Position numbers and translations under genes: made by a program
NCBI GenBank assembly: GCA_964016885.1
Contig: OZ024745.1
Location: 102,796,001 to 102,860,000 of the forward strand
Length of the DNA: 64,000 nucleotides
Origin: Eledone cirrhosa
Lineage: Eukaryota
Direction: 5' to 3'
Shown: positions 7,323 through 37,873 of the stretch, piece after piece
Numbering within the stretch: position 1 is the stretch's first letter
How the letters are laid out: each line of letters starts with the position of its first letter
Notes under the pieces: model-generated
The model's input: only the letters and a program-made list of their open reading frames with translations
Told to the model about the DNA's origin: nothing
The model's database searches: none

Positions 7323-7704
7323 TGTGTGTGTGTATATGTGTGTCTGTATATGTCTAAGCATATATGGTGTATATGTCAATGTGTATACTCATGTATAGAT
7401 GCGAGAAGAGAATACAAAAGTGAAGAAAAGAACGAAAGGGAAATAATAACATGCAAAAGAGAAATAGTTAGCTGGAGACAGTTTTGAAGTGATATATGAT
7501 AAAGGTTGCGTAAAAGAGAGGTGATTTATAAGTGAAACAACATAAACAGAATGTGTAAAATGTGTGAGTGTTATATAGTATAGGATGATTTATAAACAAG
7601 GAGTGGGCATAGCTGTGTTGTTCAAAAATCCACATTAGACACGTGGTTCCGGCTTCTATCCCACCAAATAACAACTTTTTGAATGTGTCTTCTATAGATT
7701 TGGG

Positions 7705-8667
7705 TATACAGTAATCCCCCGCTATATCGCGGTTCACTTTTTGCGATTCCGCTACATCGCGGGTTTTTCTTTGTAACGTATCTAATTTCCTATCGCGGTA
7801 ATCCCCGCTACATCGCGGATTTTTTTGTTAGAACATATCTATTTTCTTATCGTGGTACGTACATCTGAATAAAAAGTGTTTAAATTTTAAACTTATTAAA
7901 TAAGTTTCGATGTGATTGAAGTGTATAGCGTAAGGAAGGGGCATGTTTTTATTTTTCATTCCATTACTGTTCTACTGATTGTGTTTTTGTTCTCTAATCT
8001 ACTATAAACCCTTCATAGATTGACGTATACAGTAATCCCCCGCTATATCGCGGTTCACTTTTTGCGGTTCCGCTACATCGCGGGGTTTTCTTTGTAACGT
8101 ATCTAATTTCCTATCGCGGTAATCCCCGCTACATCGCGGATTTTTTTGTTAGAACATATCTATTTTCTTATCGTGGTACGTACATCTGAATAAAAAGTGT
8201 TTAAATTTTAAACTTATCAAATAAGTTTCGATGTGATTGAAGTGTATAGCGTAAGGAAGGGGCATGTTTTTATTTTTCATTCCATTACTGTTCTACTGAT
8301 TGTGTTTTTGTTCTCTAATCTACTATAAACCCTTCATAGATTGACGTATACAGTAATCCCCCGCTATATCGCGGTTCACTTTTTGCGGTTCCGCTACATC
8401 GCGGGTTTTTCTTTGTAACGTATCTAATTACCTATCGCGGTAATCCCCGTTACATCGCGGATTTTTTTGTTAGAACATATCTATTTTCTTATCGTGGTAC
8501 GTACATCTGAATAAAAAGTCTTTAAATTTTAAACTTATTAAATAAGTTTCGATGTGATTGAAGTGTATAGCGTAAGGAAGGGACATGTTTTTATTTTTCA
8601 TTCCATTACTGTTCTACTGATTGTGTTTTTTTTCTCTAATCTACTATAAACCCTTCATAGATTGACG
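7705..8667 (+). repeat. Three head-to-tail ~321-bp units, each beginning with a pogo/Tigger-like transposon terminus
   Basis: Units start TA+CAGTAATCCCCCGCTATATCGCGGTTCAC at 7709, 8030 and 8351 and are near identical. Confidence 0.9.
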
Positions 8668-18895: not shown

Positions 18896-18946
18896 TTGTA
18901 TGTGTTTGTTGGTGCCTTTGTATGCATGTATATATATGCTTCTATT

Positions 18947-19518
18947 CCAGTACAACCTGTCCCATGGTCGGGTCGTTGGCGACTAAACTGGCAACCCCAC
19001 CAAGGTTTCTTGGTGAGTAGGGTGACTTTGGACATCCTGCAGGACTAAAAACAAAACCTGTCAAAGGGCAAAAGAGCTCTTAAGAGTCAATGGCCATCCA
19101 AAATCACCGGGAGAGATGACCCATTAGCCTTTGTCAAGGCAGAATTCTAGGAGAAGGAAAACTCTGATATAACACCTGCAACCCTGATGGTATCCAATGA
19201 TGTTGACTTATTCTTCTTTTTGGTAAATATCATCTTGGTTAAGAGAGTGGGACTGGCTTTGTGCAGTGACTTTGCTCACTATAAAAGCTTCACGGCACAG
19301 GCATTGCTTTGTATCTGGAGATCTCTCTGCACATGTCGTCACATGGTACCACGGGCCCAGCACTATGTGTCAATAATTGTCACAAGTGTAGTGTTTGTAC
19401 CAGCGTTTTCAAGTCGCTGGTTGGACTAAAAAGTCACACTCGTTCAGCGCATCGGTAGGGGTTCTCCTACATGGATATAAAGTAGTGGCCGTACTCGAAA
19501 ACCAGTTGGCAGCCACCA
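18947..19518 (+). mobile_element. RTE-derived bipartite non-autonomous retroposon (family C), copy 1
   Basis: 5' part has RTE-UTR-like motifs (ctggcaaccccac, ggagaaggaaaactctga). 3' part encodes a remnant zinc finger (CSVCT..FK/QSL.GLKSH). Homologous to 19627-20235 and 37227-37635. Confidence 0.7.
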
Positions 19519-19560
19519 TATGCATGTATATATATGTGTGTCTACCTCAATATATACCTT

Positions 19561-19626
<66 letters not shown>

Positions 19627-20235
19627 TGGTGGCTGCCAACTCGTTTTCGTGTACGGCCACTACGTTATATCCATGTAGGAGAACTACATCGCTGAACGAG
19701 TGTGACTTTTTAGTCCAGCCAGCGACTTGAAAACTCTGGTACAGACACTACACTTGTGACAAATATTGACACATAGTGCTGGGCCCATGATACCATGTGA
19801 TGACAAGTGCAGAGAGATCTCCAGATATAAAGCAATGCCTGTGCCGTGAAGCTTTTATAGTGAGCAAAGGCACTGCACAAAGCCAGTCGCACTCTCTTAA
19901 CCAAGATGATATTTACCAAAAAGAAGAATAAGTCAACATCATTGGATACCATCAGGGTTTGCAGGTGTTATATCAGAGTTTTCCTTCTCCTAGAATTCTG
20001 CCCTTGACAAAGGCTAAGGGGTCATCTCTCCCGGGTGATTTTGGATGCCCATTGACTCTTAAGAGCTCCTTTGCCCTTTGACAGGTTTTGTTTTTAGTCC
20101 TGAAGGATGTCCAAAGTCACCCTCCTCACCAAGAAACCTTGGTGGGGTTGCCAGTTTAGTCGCCAACGACCCGACAATGAGACAGGTTGTACTGGGATAC
20201 ATGTTACCAGTAGCACCAACTGGTGACCTGACATA
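19627..20235 (-). mobile_element. Family C retroposon, copy 2 (longest), inverted relative to copy 1
   Basis: Reverse complement of copy 1; shares the 80-aa ORF MVSNDVDLFF... Confidence 0.75.
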
Positions 20236-20239
20236 AATA

Positions 20240-24451
<4,212 letters not shown>

Positions 24452-24830: not shown

Positions 24831-25458
24831 GGACATTATTATTATTAATATTATTATTATTATTATTCTCTAAATTCCTTACATCAAACTAAAATATGTT
24901 GACGATCTTTTAATAACGTCTTCCTTGTGAAATTTGTGGTCTTGTTTTGCTTAACTAATGAATATATACATACATACATATATATATATAATATATATAT
25001 ATATATATTATATATATTTTAGAAAGTGAGGTTTTTTTTACAAAATGAAAAATAACCGAGGTGTCCTACACGAGTGAAAGTATAAAGAAAAAGAGATGAA
25101 ATCGAAAATGCAACTGGGGTCTTTTTTTTTTTAAATATATATATATTTATTTGGTTCCTTTATCGGTTTCGGAGTTCTTCTGCTTTTCAAAAGGTGAGTT
25201 GAGATGGAGGGTCTGTGGTTTTTCTCACATCTGGTTGGTCTCTGAATGTTACTTGTTTTATATGGAAAAAGTGGCTCGAAATGCCAGGTTTTTTCGAGAA
25301 GTAATTTGATTGGTTTGTCAATAATTATAATAAATTTCGCGCCAGTTTGCGTTACAATAGTTCTTCAAATAAGAGGGGGGGTTGTCATAGGTTGTTTTTT
25401 CATATATGAGTGTTTGAATTTCTTTTTACTTGAAAAAAGGAGGCTCACGAAGGCTTTT

Positions 25459-25658
25459 NNNNNNNNNNNNNNNNNNNNNNNNNNNNNNNNNNNNNNNNNN
25501 NNNNNNNNNNNNNNNNNNNNNNNNNNNNNNNNNNNNNNNNNNNNNNNNNNNNNNNNNNNNNNNNNNNNNNNNNNNNNNNNNNNNNNNNNNNNNNNNNNNN
25601 NNNNNNNNNNNNNNNNNNNNNNNNNNNNNNNNNNNNNNNNNNNNNNNNNNNNNNNNNN
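25459..25658. other. Assembly gap (200 N)
   Basis: Run of N. Confidence 1.
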
Positions 25659-25767
25659 GGCACAAAGTTAACCTCGGTGGGATTTGAACTCAGACTGTAA
25701 AGGGCCATAACTCTATGCTGCAAAGCATGGCATTTGACCCTCTACTGATACTGCCAATCTACTGCCC
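25659..25767 (-). mobile_element. SINE family A, 5' half abutting the gap
   Basis: aagttaacctcgg..ggatttgaactcag...gatactgccaat. Confidence 0.8.
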
Positions 25768-33448: not shown

Positions 33449-33489
<41 letters not shown>

Positions 33490-33574
33490 ATATGTATATA
33501 AATATATATATATACATAAATATATACATAAATATATACATAGATGAATATATATATATATAAATAAACATATG

Positions 33575-33613
<39 letters not shown>

Positions 33614-33618
33614 ATATG

Positions 33619-33659
<41 letters not shown>

Positions 33660-33676
33660 ATATGTATATAAATATA
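33400..33676. repeat. TA minisatellite (unit tatataaacatatgtatataaata), interrupted by the viral insertion and resuming at 37636-37772
   Basis: The same distinctive units (aaacatatgta; catagatgaata) occur on both sides of the insertion. Confidence 0.85.
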
Positions 33677-33793
33677 AACGGGTTACCATGCGAAATAAAT
33701 ACTTATTCGGGGGCTAAAAAAAGTGCATGGGCACCAACGGAAAAAGGGGCATCCGGTTTGCCGCCTTTGACAGTGCATTTGCTATTAACCAAA

Positions 33794-33832
<39 letters not shown>

Positions 33833-33847
33833 ATGCAGATATATAGT

Positions 33848-33853
33848 TTTATT
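33848..33853 (-). terminator. AATAAA polyadenylation signal of the viral transcription unit
   Basis: tttatt on the + strand, ~80 nt after the NS1 stop. Confidence 0.55.
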
Positions 33854-33935
33854 CAAGTAATACAGAAAGAAAGTTATTATCTCGAGGATATTACTAGTTA
33901 TATAATGAAACGAAAATGAAATAAAATAAAGAAAT

Positions 33936-35054
33936 TTAAAGTTCTTGAGTGAATGGTTCTGGAGAAGGAGCGTCTTTGTTCGACTGCATCATTTTTTTGA
34001 ATCTGCTCGTTCCTTGAATGGTACTGACGTGCGTAAACATGTTAGATATACTACGCGCGATCATTGATTTGCCTGTGTTAGGCAGGCCGGTGAATACAAG
34101 CAAGTTTGTTTTGGCTTTGTATTTATTAAGCAAATCCCAAATACATTTTACAAGTTCTTCTTCGTCTATGTCTTGTGTCATAATTATTGATCTAAATATT
34201 TTCAACGAAGTTTCGGTATCCATCCATAATTTGGTGTTTTCAAATTGTTTCCAATTCATATTCTCGAACTTCTCTTTGAATGGCATTATCAGTGTTTTCA
34301 GTTTCACGCATTCGAGTACTTTCTTCATGACGCTGTCGTACATGGGATGACTGATAGCGCGCATGAAATTTTCGTTGTTTGCTCGGTTAAGCCAGTGTGT
34401 TTTCATCTCCTGTTCGTTTCGAAATTTTTTTGATGTGAATATATACGTCAGGTAGTTGAATAGAGTTAAAGTCGTACCACTTCTGCTTTTGAATGTCGGT
34501 TCGTCCGTGGCATGTCTTGTTGATGTACTCGTTTTAGGTGTTGGGCTACATTTAGGTACGTATTCTTTCGAGCACCATTCTGCAAATTCAGAGTTTATAG
34601 AACCGAGGCCTTTTATCAGTAAATATCTCGGTGGTTGGCAGAAGTAATTGGCCATGCTGCTAGGGAACTTTACTCTTTGACACTCTGGTATGTATCGCGC
34701 TAACTGTGTTCCCTTTTTGTACAAGCTTCTCACGTATTTGAGACGTTGGTTTTCTCCTGGTCTTATCTCTGAATTCCATATGATATGGAAGTGGTTGAAC
34801 GCATTCCATTCCTTTTTGTCGCATATTTTTGATTCTTTTGGATGGTAAATTACTGTTGCCTTGTTGATTTGAATAAATTCTATTATTTTTCTGTTTGCAT
34901 TAATTAGAAAGTTATTCTTGTATGCCCCTTCTTTTTCGTCGAAATCGTTTGTTGTTATTTCGTCGTGTTGTATCGGAACTCTACCGTTGTCCCAACTGAA
35001 GTCCGTTTCAAGTATCCAAGGATAAATGCACATGTACATTTTTATTCCTCTTTT
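33936..35054 (-). CDS. NS1: Parvoviral NS1/Rep exon 2 (HUH endonuclease and truncated SF3 helicase)
   Basis: HUH motif NHFHII (34785-34793), Tyr motif ANYF, Walker A LLVFTGLPNTGKS (34065-34088). Walker B and motif C absent. Preceded by acceptor ccattttatatttgcAG. Confidence 0.85.
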   Translation of the reverse strand, partial: KRGIKMYMCIYPWILETDFSWDNGRVPIQHDEITTNDFDEKEGAYKNNFLINANRKIIEFIQINKATVIYHPKESKICDKKEWNAFNHFHIIWNSEIRPGENQRLKYVRSLYKKGTQLARYIPECQRVKFPSSMANYFCQPPRYLLIKGLGSINSEFAEWCSKEYVPKCSPTPKTSTSTRHATDEPTFKSRSGTTLTLFNYLTYIFTSKKFRNEQEMKTHWLNRANNENFMRAISHPMYDSVMKKVLECVKLKTLIMPFKEKFENMNWKQFENTKLWMDTETSLKIFRSIIMTQDIDEEELVKCIWDLLNKYKAKTNLLVFTGLPNTGKSMIARSISNMFTHVSTIQGTSRFKKMMQSNKDAPSPEPFTQEL

Positions 35055-35093
35055 CTGCAAATATAAAATGGATAGATTTGTTGTAATATTACT

Positions 35094-36662
35094 TTAACGA
35101 TGAGCTTGTCGGGTTTTACCGACTCTCGTTATTTCATAATTACGTAAACCTTGCGGCCATTTACATAGATTTGTTTTGGCTGAATTTTGTATTGTTGCAT
35201 TGTCTTTTCCCCATGCCATCCAACCCATGGTTTGTGGACTGCCAGAAATATATTCGAAATCTATTTCAGAATGATAAGTTATTGTGATCATGAATGATAT
35301 TTTAGCCGGATTGTTTTGAGAATCTAGAATAGGTACAGAATCTAAAGTAGCTATTGGCGGTGGATTAGATGGATTTATTGGAAACTGTGTTAAATGTGAT
35401 CTGCCAGTGTTTTGTTCTTCATTTGATTTATCTACCGCCATTGATTTACTCCATGCCCCTTTTTCCGTTGGTGCCCATGCACTTTTTTTAGCCCCCGAAT
35501 AAGTATTTATTTCGCATGGTAATCCGTTAGTTAGTTTTATTGTTGGTGGTTCGTATGTAGAATTAAATGCATAATAGTTCATCATATTGAACCAACTTGG
35601 AGTTCTATTTACCCATGTATATCCTGCTGTGTCCCCAGCGTAAACGAATTGAAATTGACCAGTGTTTAAATAAGACAATATTTCTTCTGCTGGTATTTCT
35701 TGTTCTGTAGGTTTCGCTGCCTTAGTATCTTGCCATAACCACCAATCTTTTCTAATTAATCTATTTGTAATGCATTGATTTAGTTTCCCTTCTTCCCTTG
35801 TTAATGGTACGTTATGTGTCCAATTATTGTTTAAATGTCCTATTAAGTATGTTTGATTAGGAAATAAACAGTATTTATTATCGACGTAATGTATCATCCA
35901 TGGTCTTGTATTGAATGTTGTGTTAGTTGTAGTTGTATTTTGTAATGTTCCTAATTCGTCTGTTAAAGGAATTATATTTGATATTTGATACCCACATGAT
36001 TTAACTCTGAAATTATTGCAAGGTGTTAAATATGTTTCTAATTCTGCTATTGTCATACTAGCTTTTAATTCTGTATATGGTATGTATGATGCTCTGTGTT
36101 TTATTGTTAATTCTATGTATTCATCATCATGTGTTTTGTATATTGCTTTATCTGTAGGATTATCCGAACAGTTTATGTAGTGTATGAAAGTTCTTGAAAA
36201 TTTTTTTGAAACGATTGGATTTTTATCGCCTATGTCTGGTGGTTGATCTCCACTTGCCATTGCTGCTGAGCCCCCAGGAGCTGGACCTACATGTGGATCA
36301 CCCATGTCTACTGTTTGACTATTAATTCCGCTGTCTTGTGATACAAAGTCTTCGTCTGATGCGTCGCAAAGGTCTTCTTGATTTTTCTTAGATTGTTCTT
36401 CTTCTACTCTTCTTTTTTTGTTCGCCGGTGGCATAACCCAATTCTTAGCTTTGATTGTGTTTGCTACTACGAACGCCGCTACTCCGCCTATATTTTCAGA
36501 ACACTGTATTAATCTATTATCTGCTTCTGCTATATCTACCTCTGTTTTACCGTATTCTATGTCGTGTATTTGACAGCATTTATCTAATTCGTTAACAGGT
36601 TGTTTTTGTAAATTGTTTGTGTATGGACCACAATAATTATAACCTGGTAAATGTAAAGGCAT
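35094..36662 (-). CDS. VP1: Parvoviral capsid protein VP1 (522 aa) with N-terminal PLA2 domain
   Basis: LPGYNYCGPY...VNELDKCCQIHDIEY...D (Ca loop and HD catalytic motif), NLS-like PANKKRR, Gly/Ala-rich PGGSAAMASG, Y-I-P motif typical of the start of the jelly roll. ORF uninterrupted. Confidence 0.9.
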   Translation of the reverse strand: MPLHLPGYNYCGPYTNNLQKQPVNELDKCCQIHDIEYGKTEVDIAEADNRLIQCSENIGGVAAFVVANTIKAKNWVMPPANKKRRVEEEQSKKNQEDLCDASDEDFVSQDSGINSQTVDMGDPHVGPAPGGSAAMASGDQPPDIGDKNPIVSKKFSRTFIHYINCSDNPTDKAIYKTHDDEYIELTIKHRASYIPYTELKASMTIAELETYLTPCNNFRVKSCGYQISNIIPLTDELGTLQNTTTTNTTFNTRPWMIHYVDNKYCLFPNQTYLIGHLNNNWTHNVPLTREEGKLNQCITNRLIRKDWWLWQDTKAAKPTEQEIPAEEILSYLNTGQFQFVYAGDTAGYTWVNRTPSWFNMMNYYAFNSTYEPPTIKLTNGLPCEINTYSGAKKSAWAPTEKGAWSKSMAVDKSNEEQNTGRSHLTQFPINPSNPPPIATLDSVPILDSQNNPAKISFMITITYHSEIDFEYISGSPQTMGWMAWGKDNATIQNSAKTNLCKWPQGLRNYEITRVGKTRQAHR

Positions 36663-36672
36663 TCTGACTTAC

Positions 36673-36726
36673 CGCCAAAGAAGTAATCATATCTCGATCT
36701 CTCGTCTTTAAATCTTCGTAATTCAT
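36673..36726 (-). CDS. NS1: Predicted NS1 exon 1 (MNYEDLKTRDRDMITSLA)
   Basis: CAAC-ATG context and 18 codons ending GCG|GTAAGT (phase 0), in frame with exon 2 after CAG at 35055. Confidence 0.7.
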
Positions 36727-36808
36727 GTTGATCTTTTTGCGGAGTAACGGCGTTCGTATCTGCAAGATGTCTGCTGAGTTGTGGCAGTTTGAGTTGCGCG
36801 CTCTTTGT

Positions 36809-36924
36809 TTTTATATCTCGATTCTTGCTGACGTTAGCATATTGAATTACTGTCACGTGGTTCTATTTATACTTTTGCTAACGCAAGCATTATTTTTTGC
36901 TGATGTAGCTTTAATATTGCGTCA
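36809..36924 (-). promoter_or_regulatory. Viral left-end promoter
   Basis: TATAAATA (36864-36871), TATAAAA (36809-36815), E-box CACGTG (36854-36859), CRE half-sites TGACG (36829-36833 and 36920-36924). Confidence 0.6.
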
Positions 36925-37228
36925 TTTCTTAACTGTCAAATCTTGCTTTGTAATTTGATATCTTTGCCTGTCCCCTCTCCTAACTGTGCTATGCACTGAA
37001 CTTTTGGATAGGAGACCTGACCGGGAGGGAGGGAGGTTGAGGTTCATTACAAAGTTATAGCGTAAAGGATCTTCACGATTACCTATCCGCTAAATTCTTT
37101 AGATTCCTCAACCTCCCTCCCTCCCGGTCAGGTCTCCTATCCAAAAGTTCAGTGCATAGCACAGTTAGGAGAGGGGACAGGCAAAGATATCAAATTACAA
37201 AGCAAGATTTGACAGTTAAGAAATGACG
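36920..37228. repeat. Parvoviral terminal hairpin (telomere and replication origin)
   Basis: Arms 36920-37042 and 37106-37228 are exact 123-bp reverse complements. The 63-nt centre pairs imperfectly (aaag/cttt, tagcg/cgcta, agg/cct, atc/gat). Confidence 0.92.
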
Positions 37229-37635
37229 GGAGAGATGACCCCTTAGCCTTTGTCAAGGCAGAATTCTAGGAGAAGGAAAACTCTGATATAACACCTGCAA
37301 CCCTGATGGTATCCAATGATGTTGACTTGTTCTTCTTTTTGGTAAATATCATCTTGGTTAAGAGAGTGGGACTGGCTTTGTGCAGTGCCTTTGCTCACTA
37401 TAAAAGCTTCACGGCACAGGCATTGCTTTATATCTGGAGATCTCTCTGCACTTGTCGTCACATGGTACCATGGGCCCAGCACTCTGTGTCAATAATTGTC
37501 ACAAGTGTAGTGTTTGTACCAGAGTTTTCAAGTCGCTGGCTGGACTAAAAAGTCAGTCGTTCAGCGCATCGGTAGGGGTTCTCCTACATGGATATAAAGT
37601 AGTGGCCGTACTCGAAAACGAGTTGGCAGCCACCA
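37227..37635 (+). mobile_element. Family C RTE-derived retroposon, 5'-truncated and fused to the viral hairpin end
   Basis: Matches the 3' ~410 bp of the copies at 18947-19518 and 19627-20235. Remnant CSVCTRVFKSLAGLKS; followed by (TA)n. Confidence 0.85.
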
Positions 37636-37873
37636 TATATATATATATATATATATAAACATATGTATATAAATATATATATATACATAAATATATACAT
37701 AAATATATACATAAATATATACATAGATGAATATATATATATATAAATAAACATATGTATATAAATATATATAGGAACGAGTAGGACCCCGACGGCTGAG
37801 CTCAAGCTGTTTTGGCGGCTAATTCTGGACTACTTATGGTCTACCTGGTTCCTTACCACATTTCCTTCGTTAT

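Follow-up and report, generated by a model that had tools for sequence, protein, structure and literature searches.

A parvovirus with a putative intron-nested capsid gene in the Eledone cirrhosa genome, probably inserted in one event with a retroposon

Our analysis concerns an integrated parvovirus in a 64,000-nt stretch of the Eledone cirrhosa genome (contig OZ024745.1; G000:C5:102,796,001-102,860,000), which is called the window below and to whose first letter all positions refer. The viral DNA is young, is fused over a 2-nt overlap to the truncated 5' end of a retroposon, and lies with it between two copies of one duplicated target block. The reading that we favor, and hold to be probable, is a single insertion event that was begun by RTE-type target-primed reverse transcription (TPRT) and took in a defective viral replication intermediate; the order of the steps and the enzymes would follow from it. 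The virus very probably carries its capsid gene (VP) inside an intron of its replication gene (NS1). This nested gene accounts for as much of the weight of the finding as the insertion route does, and it is the better supported of the two.

Anatomy of the insertion

A block at ~33464-33590 returns at 37635-37773, with 83 nt as the longest exact match (33508-33590 = 37691-37773). Because five diagnostic motifs of this block occur in the window on the two flanks only, and not once in 545,947 other bases compared, both flanks derive from one locus. An earlier reading of the sequence alone (the sequence-only reading) had pointed to a 26-mer at 33651-33676 and 37652-37677; it is present on both sides, but the true duplicated target is longer (~127 nt). 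The same reading had already recognized a TA tail, which begins at 37635, a ~410-bp 3' piece of an RTE-derived retroposon (37227-37634), a CG at 37227-37228 in which virus and retroposon overlap, and a 76-nt VP fragment (33677-33752), which equals 35528-35453 save for one difference; all of these recur in our analysis. The viral genes lie on the minus strand. At the left joint, AAC is common to the VP piece and the host repeat (3 nt).

The retroposon belongs to a non-coding family of 608 nt, for which the best 40 of 2,495 first-look candidates were scored. Its 3' end resembles that of a long interspersed nuclear element (LINE) at another viral insertion, L108 (tblastx 43% over 28 codons, E 5e-05), with which it also has a 13-nt terminal match; the family would be a short non-autonomous element with a LINE 3' end. 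The LINEs of the type seen at L108 and at a further insertion, L088, and thereby the retroposon, we take to be RTE from familiar motifs rather than from a library match. Among 30 loci compared, the copies closest to that in the window show 1 and 2 differences from it over 408 nt. TA- or TATG-like DNA stands at the 5' edge in 69 of the 75 classed family copies; the window copy has no TA left at this edge, and no retroposon 5' part was found to the left of the virus in the window. A 3' simple-repeat tail, a 5' truncation and a target duplication, the marks of a TPRT insertion, are all present. The truncation at 198 lies inside a hot spot: among 18 truncated, unselected family copies met beside the searched ones, seven start at 190-210 (binomial p 1.5e-6). 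As causes of this hot spot a ribozyme (no Rfam match near the gathering score) and a strong RNA fold (no better than shuffles, z 1.0) were rejected. A related 70% family also has copies beginning at the equivalent position. Elsewhere in the window, at 18943-20231, this retroposon is present in two copies that face each other tail to tail across a TA tract, beside a 4.2-kb TA array (20265-24446).

Table 1. Features of the insertion, in window coordinates.
Feature	Position	Strand	Basis and remarks
Left target-block copy	33464..33590	+	~127 nt compound TA microsatellite, locus-specific; start within TA run approximate
Extra microsatellite units	33591..33676	+	~86 nt; slippage, templated filler or original tract; unit-by-unit flank comparison
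Inverted VP piece, 76 nt	33677..33752	+	98.7% to 35528-35453; 100% to other young copies
Viral terminal region by second hairpin	33753..33827	+	46 nt + A29 (33799-33827; T29 on viral sense strand)
AATAAA after NS1 stop, putative poly(A) signal	33848..33853	-	sequence; function predicted
NS1 second exon	33936..35054	-	Pfam Parvo_NS1 E 3e-06; internal deletion 33999/34002
Putative NS1 GT-AG intron, 1,618 nt, holding the entire capsid gene	35055..36672	-	contig joint in run X4; conserved donor, acceptor and phase
Capsid gene VP, 522 aa	35094..36662	-	N-terminal PLA2 + jelly-roll shell; Pfam PF08398 E 2.4e-13
Putative NS1 first exon, 54 nt, 18 codons, phase 0	36673..36726	-	frame and conservation across copies
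Promoter-side palindrome	36920..37228	strand-neutral	likely natural hairpin 37000-37148, lengthened here by 80 nt
5'-truncated retroposon copy (198-608 of 608 nt)	37227..37634	+	family comparison; CG overlap with virus
TA tail + right target-block copy	37635..37773	+	one additional 12-nt unit compared with left copy

The viral stretch was searched for in the 3.0-Gb assembly (89 matches from 40 of 40 candidates), which holds three other near-identical insertions, on contigs C10, C14 and C998, with 1-5 differences over 2,000-3,040 nt, and many older copies at ~64-85% identity. The promoter-side palindrome of the window copy is a perfect inverted repeat of 123 nt (36920-37042 / 37106-37228; z -33.7 against shuffles). 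In 9 viral copies, the end of the outer arm was located relative to a CCAAAAG motif that they share: it lies 1 nt beyond the motif in three copies, from different strains (window equivalent 37148), 11 nt beyond it in one, before it in four, and 81 nt beyond it in the window only. Several older viral ends cluster near the hairpin tip, and the palindrome of the C10 copy extends ~1,700 nt. From the outer-arm ends we take 37148 to be a natural terminus or a nick site. Because the window arm runs 80 nt beyond this likely terminus, the captured DNA would have been a partly copied or broken replication intermediate, not a packaged genome; the deletion in the NS1 helicase region at 33999/34002 (~540 nt relative to the other young copies) and the inverted VP piece fit this.

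The sequence-only reading had placed the viral 3' end at 37228, on the "last paired base" of the hairpin. The argument is circular, as any cut in the outer arm produces a last paired base, and a natural 3' end at 37228 is ruled out by the outer-arm ends of other copies, three independent insertions stopping 80 nt earlier. It had also described a poly(A) with ~45 unassigned nucleotides. These 46 nt and the A-tract recur on both arms of the terminal palindrome of the C998 copy (250/250 nt on one and 99.6% over 251 nt on the other, with tracts of A29 and A30), which is centered on the second viral hairpin; in a diverged strain, too, an A-rich tract stands at a similar distance from the same hairpin motif. 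Since they are viral terminal DNA, a polyadenylated RNA is unneeded, and as a template it is ruled out. Viral polarity, which had been cited for one continuous cDNA, is uninformative because it is fixed by geometry: any join at the hairpin end of a linear genome gives the same orientation. The window copy stops at the stem base of the second hairpin, which, in C998 and in a diverged strain, has a 19-nt motif in common with the promoter-side hairpin. At 35523 the main VP copy has a base of its own, the alternative one being found in the 76-nt VP piece and in every other young copy; this may be a later mutation, a copying error or a consensus error. Around one older viral copy (L098, 4557-9949) several second-hairpin copies stand in tandem and inverted.

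A capsid gene within a putative NS1 intron

In the window, as in 8/8 older loci with both genes, VP stands before NS1 and on one strand with it. In run X4, a contig connects 36673 directly with 35054; the 1,618 nt left out between them have GT-AG ends on the viral strand (CT..AC on the plus strand), and their removal brings a 54-nt exon into the NS1 frame. Run X1 has no such joint. Among 16 viral copies checked for the splice-site pattern, the exon with a GT(A/G)AGT donor is present in 11, the other 5 not being found by the pattern, and the CAG acceptor in 12, followed 33 nt on by a conserved Pro-Trp pair in phase in 10 of these 12. We regard it as very probable that the capsid gene is nested in the NS1 intron and that NS1 is made by splicing an 18-codon exon over the whole of VP, which would itself be translated from unspliced RNA. 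Judged by the splice joint and by 47 clustered A>G places, run X4 should be RNA, and this RNA probably comes from another integrated copy because its cover ends at 33999. The A>G places (36067-36671 and nearby) all lie on the plus, virus-antisense strand, and those listed are nearly all absent in X1; they look like adenosine-to-inosine hyper-editing of antisense RNA from integrated copies.

The predicted NS1 reaches 26.9 bits against Pfam Parvo_NS1 (cut-off 20), has the SF3 helicase, and its relatives carry PF01057; as to an HUH endonuclease domain, an HFH motif lies in the NS1 open reading frame (ORF), with no profile match to that part. VP matches parvoviral capsids in a profile search, and a structure model with a pLDDT (predicted local distance difference test) of 70 has as its best Foldseek match the chapparvovirus capsid 9nek (E 5.2e-14); an earlier model built on 3 sequences had no value (pLDDT 33.5). 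By its PLA2, its profile matches and its model, the 522-aa ORF is a true capsid protein. Hairpins stand at both viral ends, as in Parvoviridae, and the NS-left/VP-right layout of that family is absent. As placement rests on NS1 and capsid, the inverted gene order marks a variant, not an exclusion from Parvoviridae.

Similar jelly-roll capsids, terminal hairpins and SF3 NS1 proteins are found in the Syngnathus scovelli chapparvovirus (9nek), the Penaeus stylirostris densovirus (3n7x) and the Penaeus monodon metallodensovirus (PmMDV; 6wh3). In contrast to these Parvoviridae with divergent capsids, the present lineage has PLA2 on VP, and VP lies upstream, apparently inside the NS1 intron. According to a review, NS stands on the left and VP on the right in all parvoviruses (PMC11357303), and a 2026 paper describes megaparvoviruses with a separate upstream PLA2 ORF, yet with NS1 before VP (PMC13426907). 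No precedent for a VP nested in an NS1 intron was found in the literature searched, which included few subscription papers and did not cover the primary description of PmMDV, a virus said to have a unique organization. The virus is known here from integrated copies alone, and no free relative showing the gene order was found in viral contig or metagenome contig collections. Named relatives of the viral proteins bear only Octopus vulgaris and O. bimaculoides labels, and the searches brought up no NS1 of a named virus; an NS1 relative (P0003) and a VP relative (P0008) each lie on a 4,017-nt ENA contig, which may be one and the same. The gene layout matters more surely than the insertion route does: it reverses the textbook order and makes splicing a switch between replication and capsid protein and, if it holds, the NS1 of such viruses is currently annotated without its first exon.

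The route of insertion

In the favored reading, a LINE endonuclease would have nicked the TA-rich compound microsatellite, and the reverse transcriptase (RT), starting at the 3' end of the retroposon RNA, would have copied it as far as the truncation hot spot (position 198). A viral DNA with a free end would then have been met by the 3' end of the cDNA, the two pairing over 2 nt. This viral DNA would have been no packaged genome, its hairpin being lengthened by 80 nt, its NS1 deleted in part and a VP piece inverted. The far end would have joined the target via 3 nt after extra repeat units, leaving the ~127-nt duplication; long RTE target duplications are known from nematodes. For the joint itself, an RT template jump and host microhomology end-joining would have about even claims within this scheme, because the 2-nt overlap, a typical product of host microhomology joining, fits both and the sequence does not distinguish them. 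Taken over all readings, a jump by the RT is a possible origin of the virus-retroposon joint, though clearly short of an even prospect. R2 and L1-U6 chimeras are known cases of template jumping. L1 ORF2p jumps templates and uses DNA templates in vitro, a second template continuing the cDNA after a short overlap (PMC10830420); the acceptor here would differ in being base-paired viral DNA, and the enzyme is deduced. A template jump should place the joint where the acceptor strand has its free 3' terminus, but it lies 80 nt beyond the shared terminus; a nascent or broken viral strand could offer a 3' end at 37228.

Other insertions in this genome bear on the route. Hairpin-side joints with host DNA (n=19) were classed by eye with the help of BLAST; L090 was left out, as its hairpin copy runs into an inverted viral piece and not into host DNA. 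Three of the 19 meet a 5'-truncated, same-strand RTE-type element within 3 nt, namely the window copy, L088 (1.9-kb LINE end) and L108 (0.84-kb LINE end); the latter two are older and have the same hairpin end and polarity. The LINE 5' part was not found on the far side of the virus at L088 or L108. None of the three RTE-fused viral ends lies at the likely natural terminus. Against a background RTE share of 6.7% (of 479 kb, an underestimate), P is 0.024 for 3/19 and 0.12 for 2/18 without the window; at a share of 10% the values are 0.067 and 0.23, so that an enrichment of RTE joints is suggestive only. This sample of endogenous viral elements (EVEs), which the sequence-only reading had proposed to survey, supplied two more hairpin-LINE joints, without an excess that is significant once the window is set aside. 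In two of the other young copies the viral end lies in the hairpin and abuts a TA tract directly, with short tandem duplications, and only 5.8% of the compared DNA lies within 10 nt of (TA)5. At L022 (4180-4250) and L024 (4480-4540), viral ends with such duplications (~15 and 7-9 nt) directly before TA tracts resemble primer slippage at a synthesis start.

Several points weigh against a retroposon-led insertion. Besides the lack of significance without the window, 16 of the 19 hairpin-side joints are not RTE fusions, and three viral ends at the likely natural terminus join non-RTE DNA. No target duplication was found around L088, L108 or C14, and the C10 copy lies inside a short interspersed nuclear element (SINE) with both halves kept, as plain end-joining would leave it. 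The duplication in the window is in itself no link between virus and retroposon, because the retroposon alone would leave it, and at ~127 nt it is far longer than the 16-18 bp of hagfish RTE duplications (PMC7245038). The ages of virus and retroposon are compatible (1-5 of 2,000-3,040 nt against 1-2 of 408 nt), a match that is weak because the retroposon family is young overall. Finally, among the read pieces listed on 33645-37690, none spans 37228/37229 or the whole stretch, and the reads neither confirm nor refute the junction.

The strongest competitor, improbable in our judgment, supposes two events: the truncated retroposon inserted first, with its duplication, and when the TA tract at its 5' edge later broke, viral DNA was taken up there by end-joining, with resection to the CG overlap. 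Rearranged hairpins and joint microhomology are typical of random integration of adeno-associated virus (AAV; PMC8793687), and end-joining is the common integration route in this genome, too, as described for AAV. All four young insertions are internally rearranged, the C10 copy and L102 look like insertions into older repeats, and three of the four young insertions touch TA tracts. TA tracts may simply break often. Two events require a break at the edge of a single young retroposon copy and the loss of every intervening TA base, which makes the single event more economical, and the same hairpin-to-truncated-LINE architecture occurs three times. We therefore still hold a single, retroposon-led insertion to be the best reading. 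In so far as the sequence-only reading ascribed the capture of a DNA virus to retrotransposon machinery in one event, it is supported, as the best reading, by the duplication, the young truncated retroposon, the lost TA flank and the two older joints; its chain of four templates is not, there being no polyadenylated RNA and the entry point lying 80 nt off the terminus.

A chimeric or mis-joined assembly, across TA repeats or via the high-copy retroposon, is highly improbable. The flanks are of low complexity, and no read piece among those listed covers the right joint, but both flanks bear motifs absent from 546 kb otherwise compared, microhomologies mark the joints, contigs of run X1 fall in the left-joint bin (depth 4.7), and the copy lies on a 134.7-Mb contig. 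Slighter still are the chances of a 5' transduction, in which the transcript of an older locus with virus and retroposon would have been retrotransposed to this site. Integrated copies do seem to give rise to antisense RNA (the plus-strand A>G clusters of X4), but the virus-retroposon joint occurs once among the best 40 of 267 candidates, and A>G changes should have arisen in so long and perfect a hairpin RNA, yet the arms are perfectly paired. The strict chain of retroposon RNA, packaged negative strand entered at its natural 3' end, polyadenylated RNA and VP-sense nucleic acid fits the polarity and the CG overlap but has the least chance of all, given an A-tract and 46 nt of viral terminal DNA and a joint 80 nt past the shared terminus.

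Germline entry of non-retroviral DNA viruses is usually ascribed to end-joining; the shared target duplication makes a retrotransposon route directly testable in a dated case that is open to a polymorphism test, with ~20 further insertions in the same genome as a comparison set. That RTE-type RTs repeatedly jump to the hairpin ends of replicating parvoviral DNA, and that the virus stands for an undescribed, cephalopod-associated lineage with a nested capsid gene, is as a joint proposition tentative and on balance unlikely. If true, such jumps would be a recurrent route of DNA-virus endogenization (three insertions of different ages). No precedent for a retroposon route of DNA-virus endogenization was found in the literature searched, with its few subscription papers.

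Related systems, material and neighboring observations

EVEs of bornavirus-type RNA viruses made via LINEs also show viral sequence within a target duplication and a retroelement-type tail (PMC2987831); here, a DNA virus is concerned, the non-transcribed hairpin is included, the intron is unspliced, and the tail comes from the co-inserted retroposon. Hairpin joints, microhomologies, inversions, deletions and concatemers are common to the present insertions, AAV integrants and end-joined parvoviral EVEs (PMC8793687, PMC2987831, PMC4231630), from which the window copy differs by its exact fusion to a truncated retroposon 5' end and its long target duplication; a pillbug EVE survey among these three sources reported no target duplications. 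Bipartite non-autonomous RTE derivatives (PMC7245038) resemble the retroposon as short non-coding elements with an RTE-like 3' end, whereas the latter has a strong TA/TATG target preference and longer duplications.

At least half of the sampled words were present in 4 of the 23 listed runs, all four from a single study, possibly the source study. Read-depth values were not treated as copy numbers, and the sparse viral reads (depth <=2) in the restriction-site-associated DNA (RAD) run X21 were left out of the evidence. Run X5, labeled as a different organism (organism B), contains pieces ~99% identical to the virus (e.g. 2 differences in 255 nt) at depth 2-3; the insertion may be shared, or the virus may circulate among closely related species.

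Among the other insertions, the C10 copy (L025, 9598-9767; L026, 7348 onward) is a multi-inverted viral concatemer in a SINE whose halves and own flanking duplication remain. A ~465-nt block stands on both sides of the C998 virus (L021/L022 flanks), offset by 774 and with several differences, and may be a long target duplication or an older tandem repeat. Two different viral copies, L094 and L095 (C12:9.07-9.09 Mb), run after the hairpin into the same non-matching sequence. Nearby are an inverted repeat of 114 bp and a stretch with distant similarity to NS1 (23%); perhaps another small DNA virus was integrated alongside. Coding pieces that we presume from familiar motifs to be Penelope-like adjoin viral hairpin ends at L023 (8000-9121) and L107 (5200-5620), and at L119 (848-3391) an NS1 piece is repeated many times at ~108-nt spacing beside tandem LINE 3' ends. 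In the window, a run of N at ~25,450-25,660 (assembly gap or withheld stretch) lies ~8 kb left of the insertion, and a 321-nt unit stands three times in tandem at 7689-8667, its copies 97% alike.

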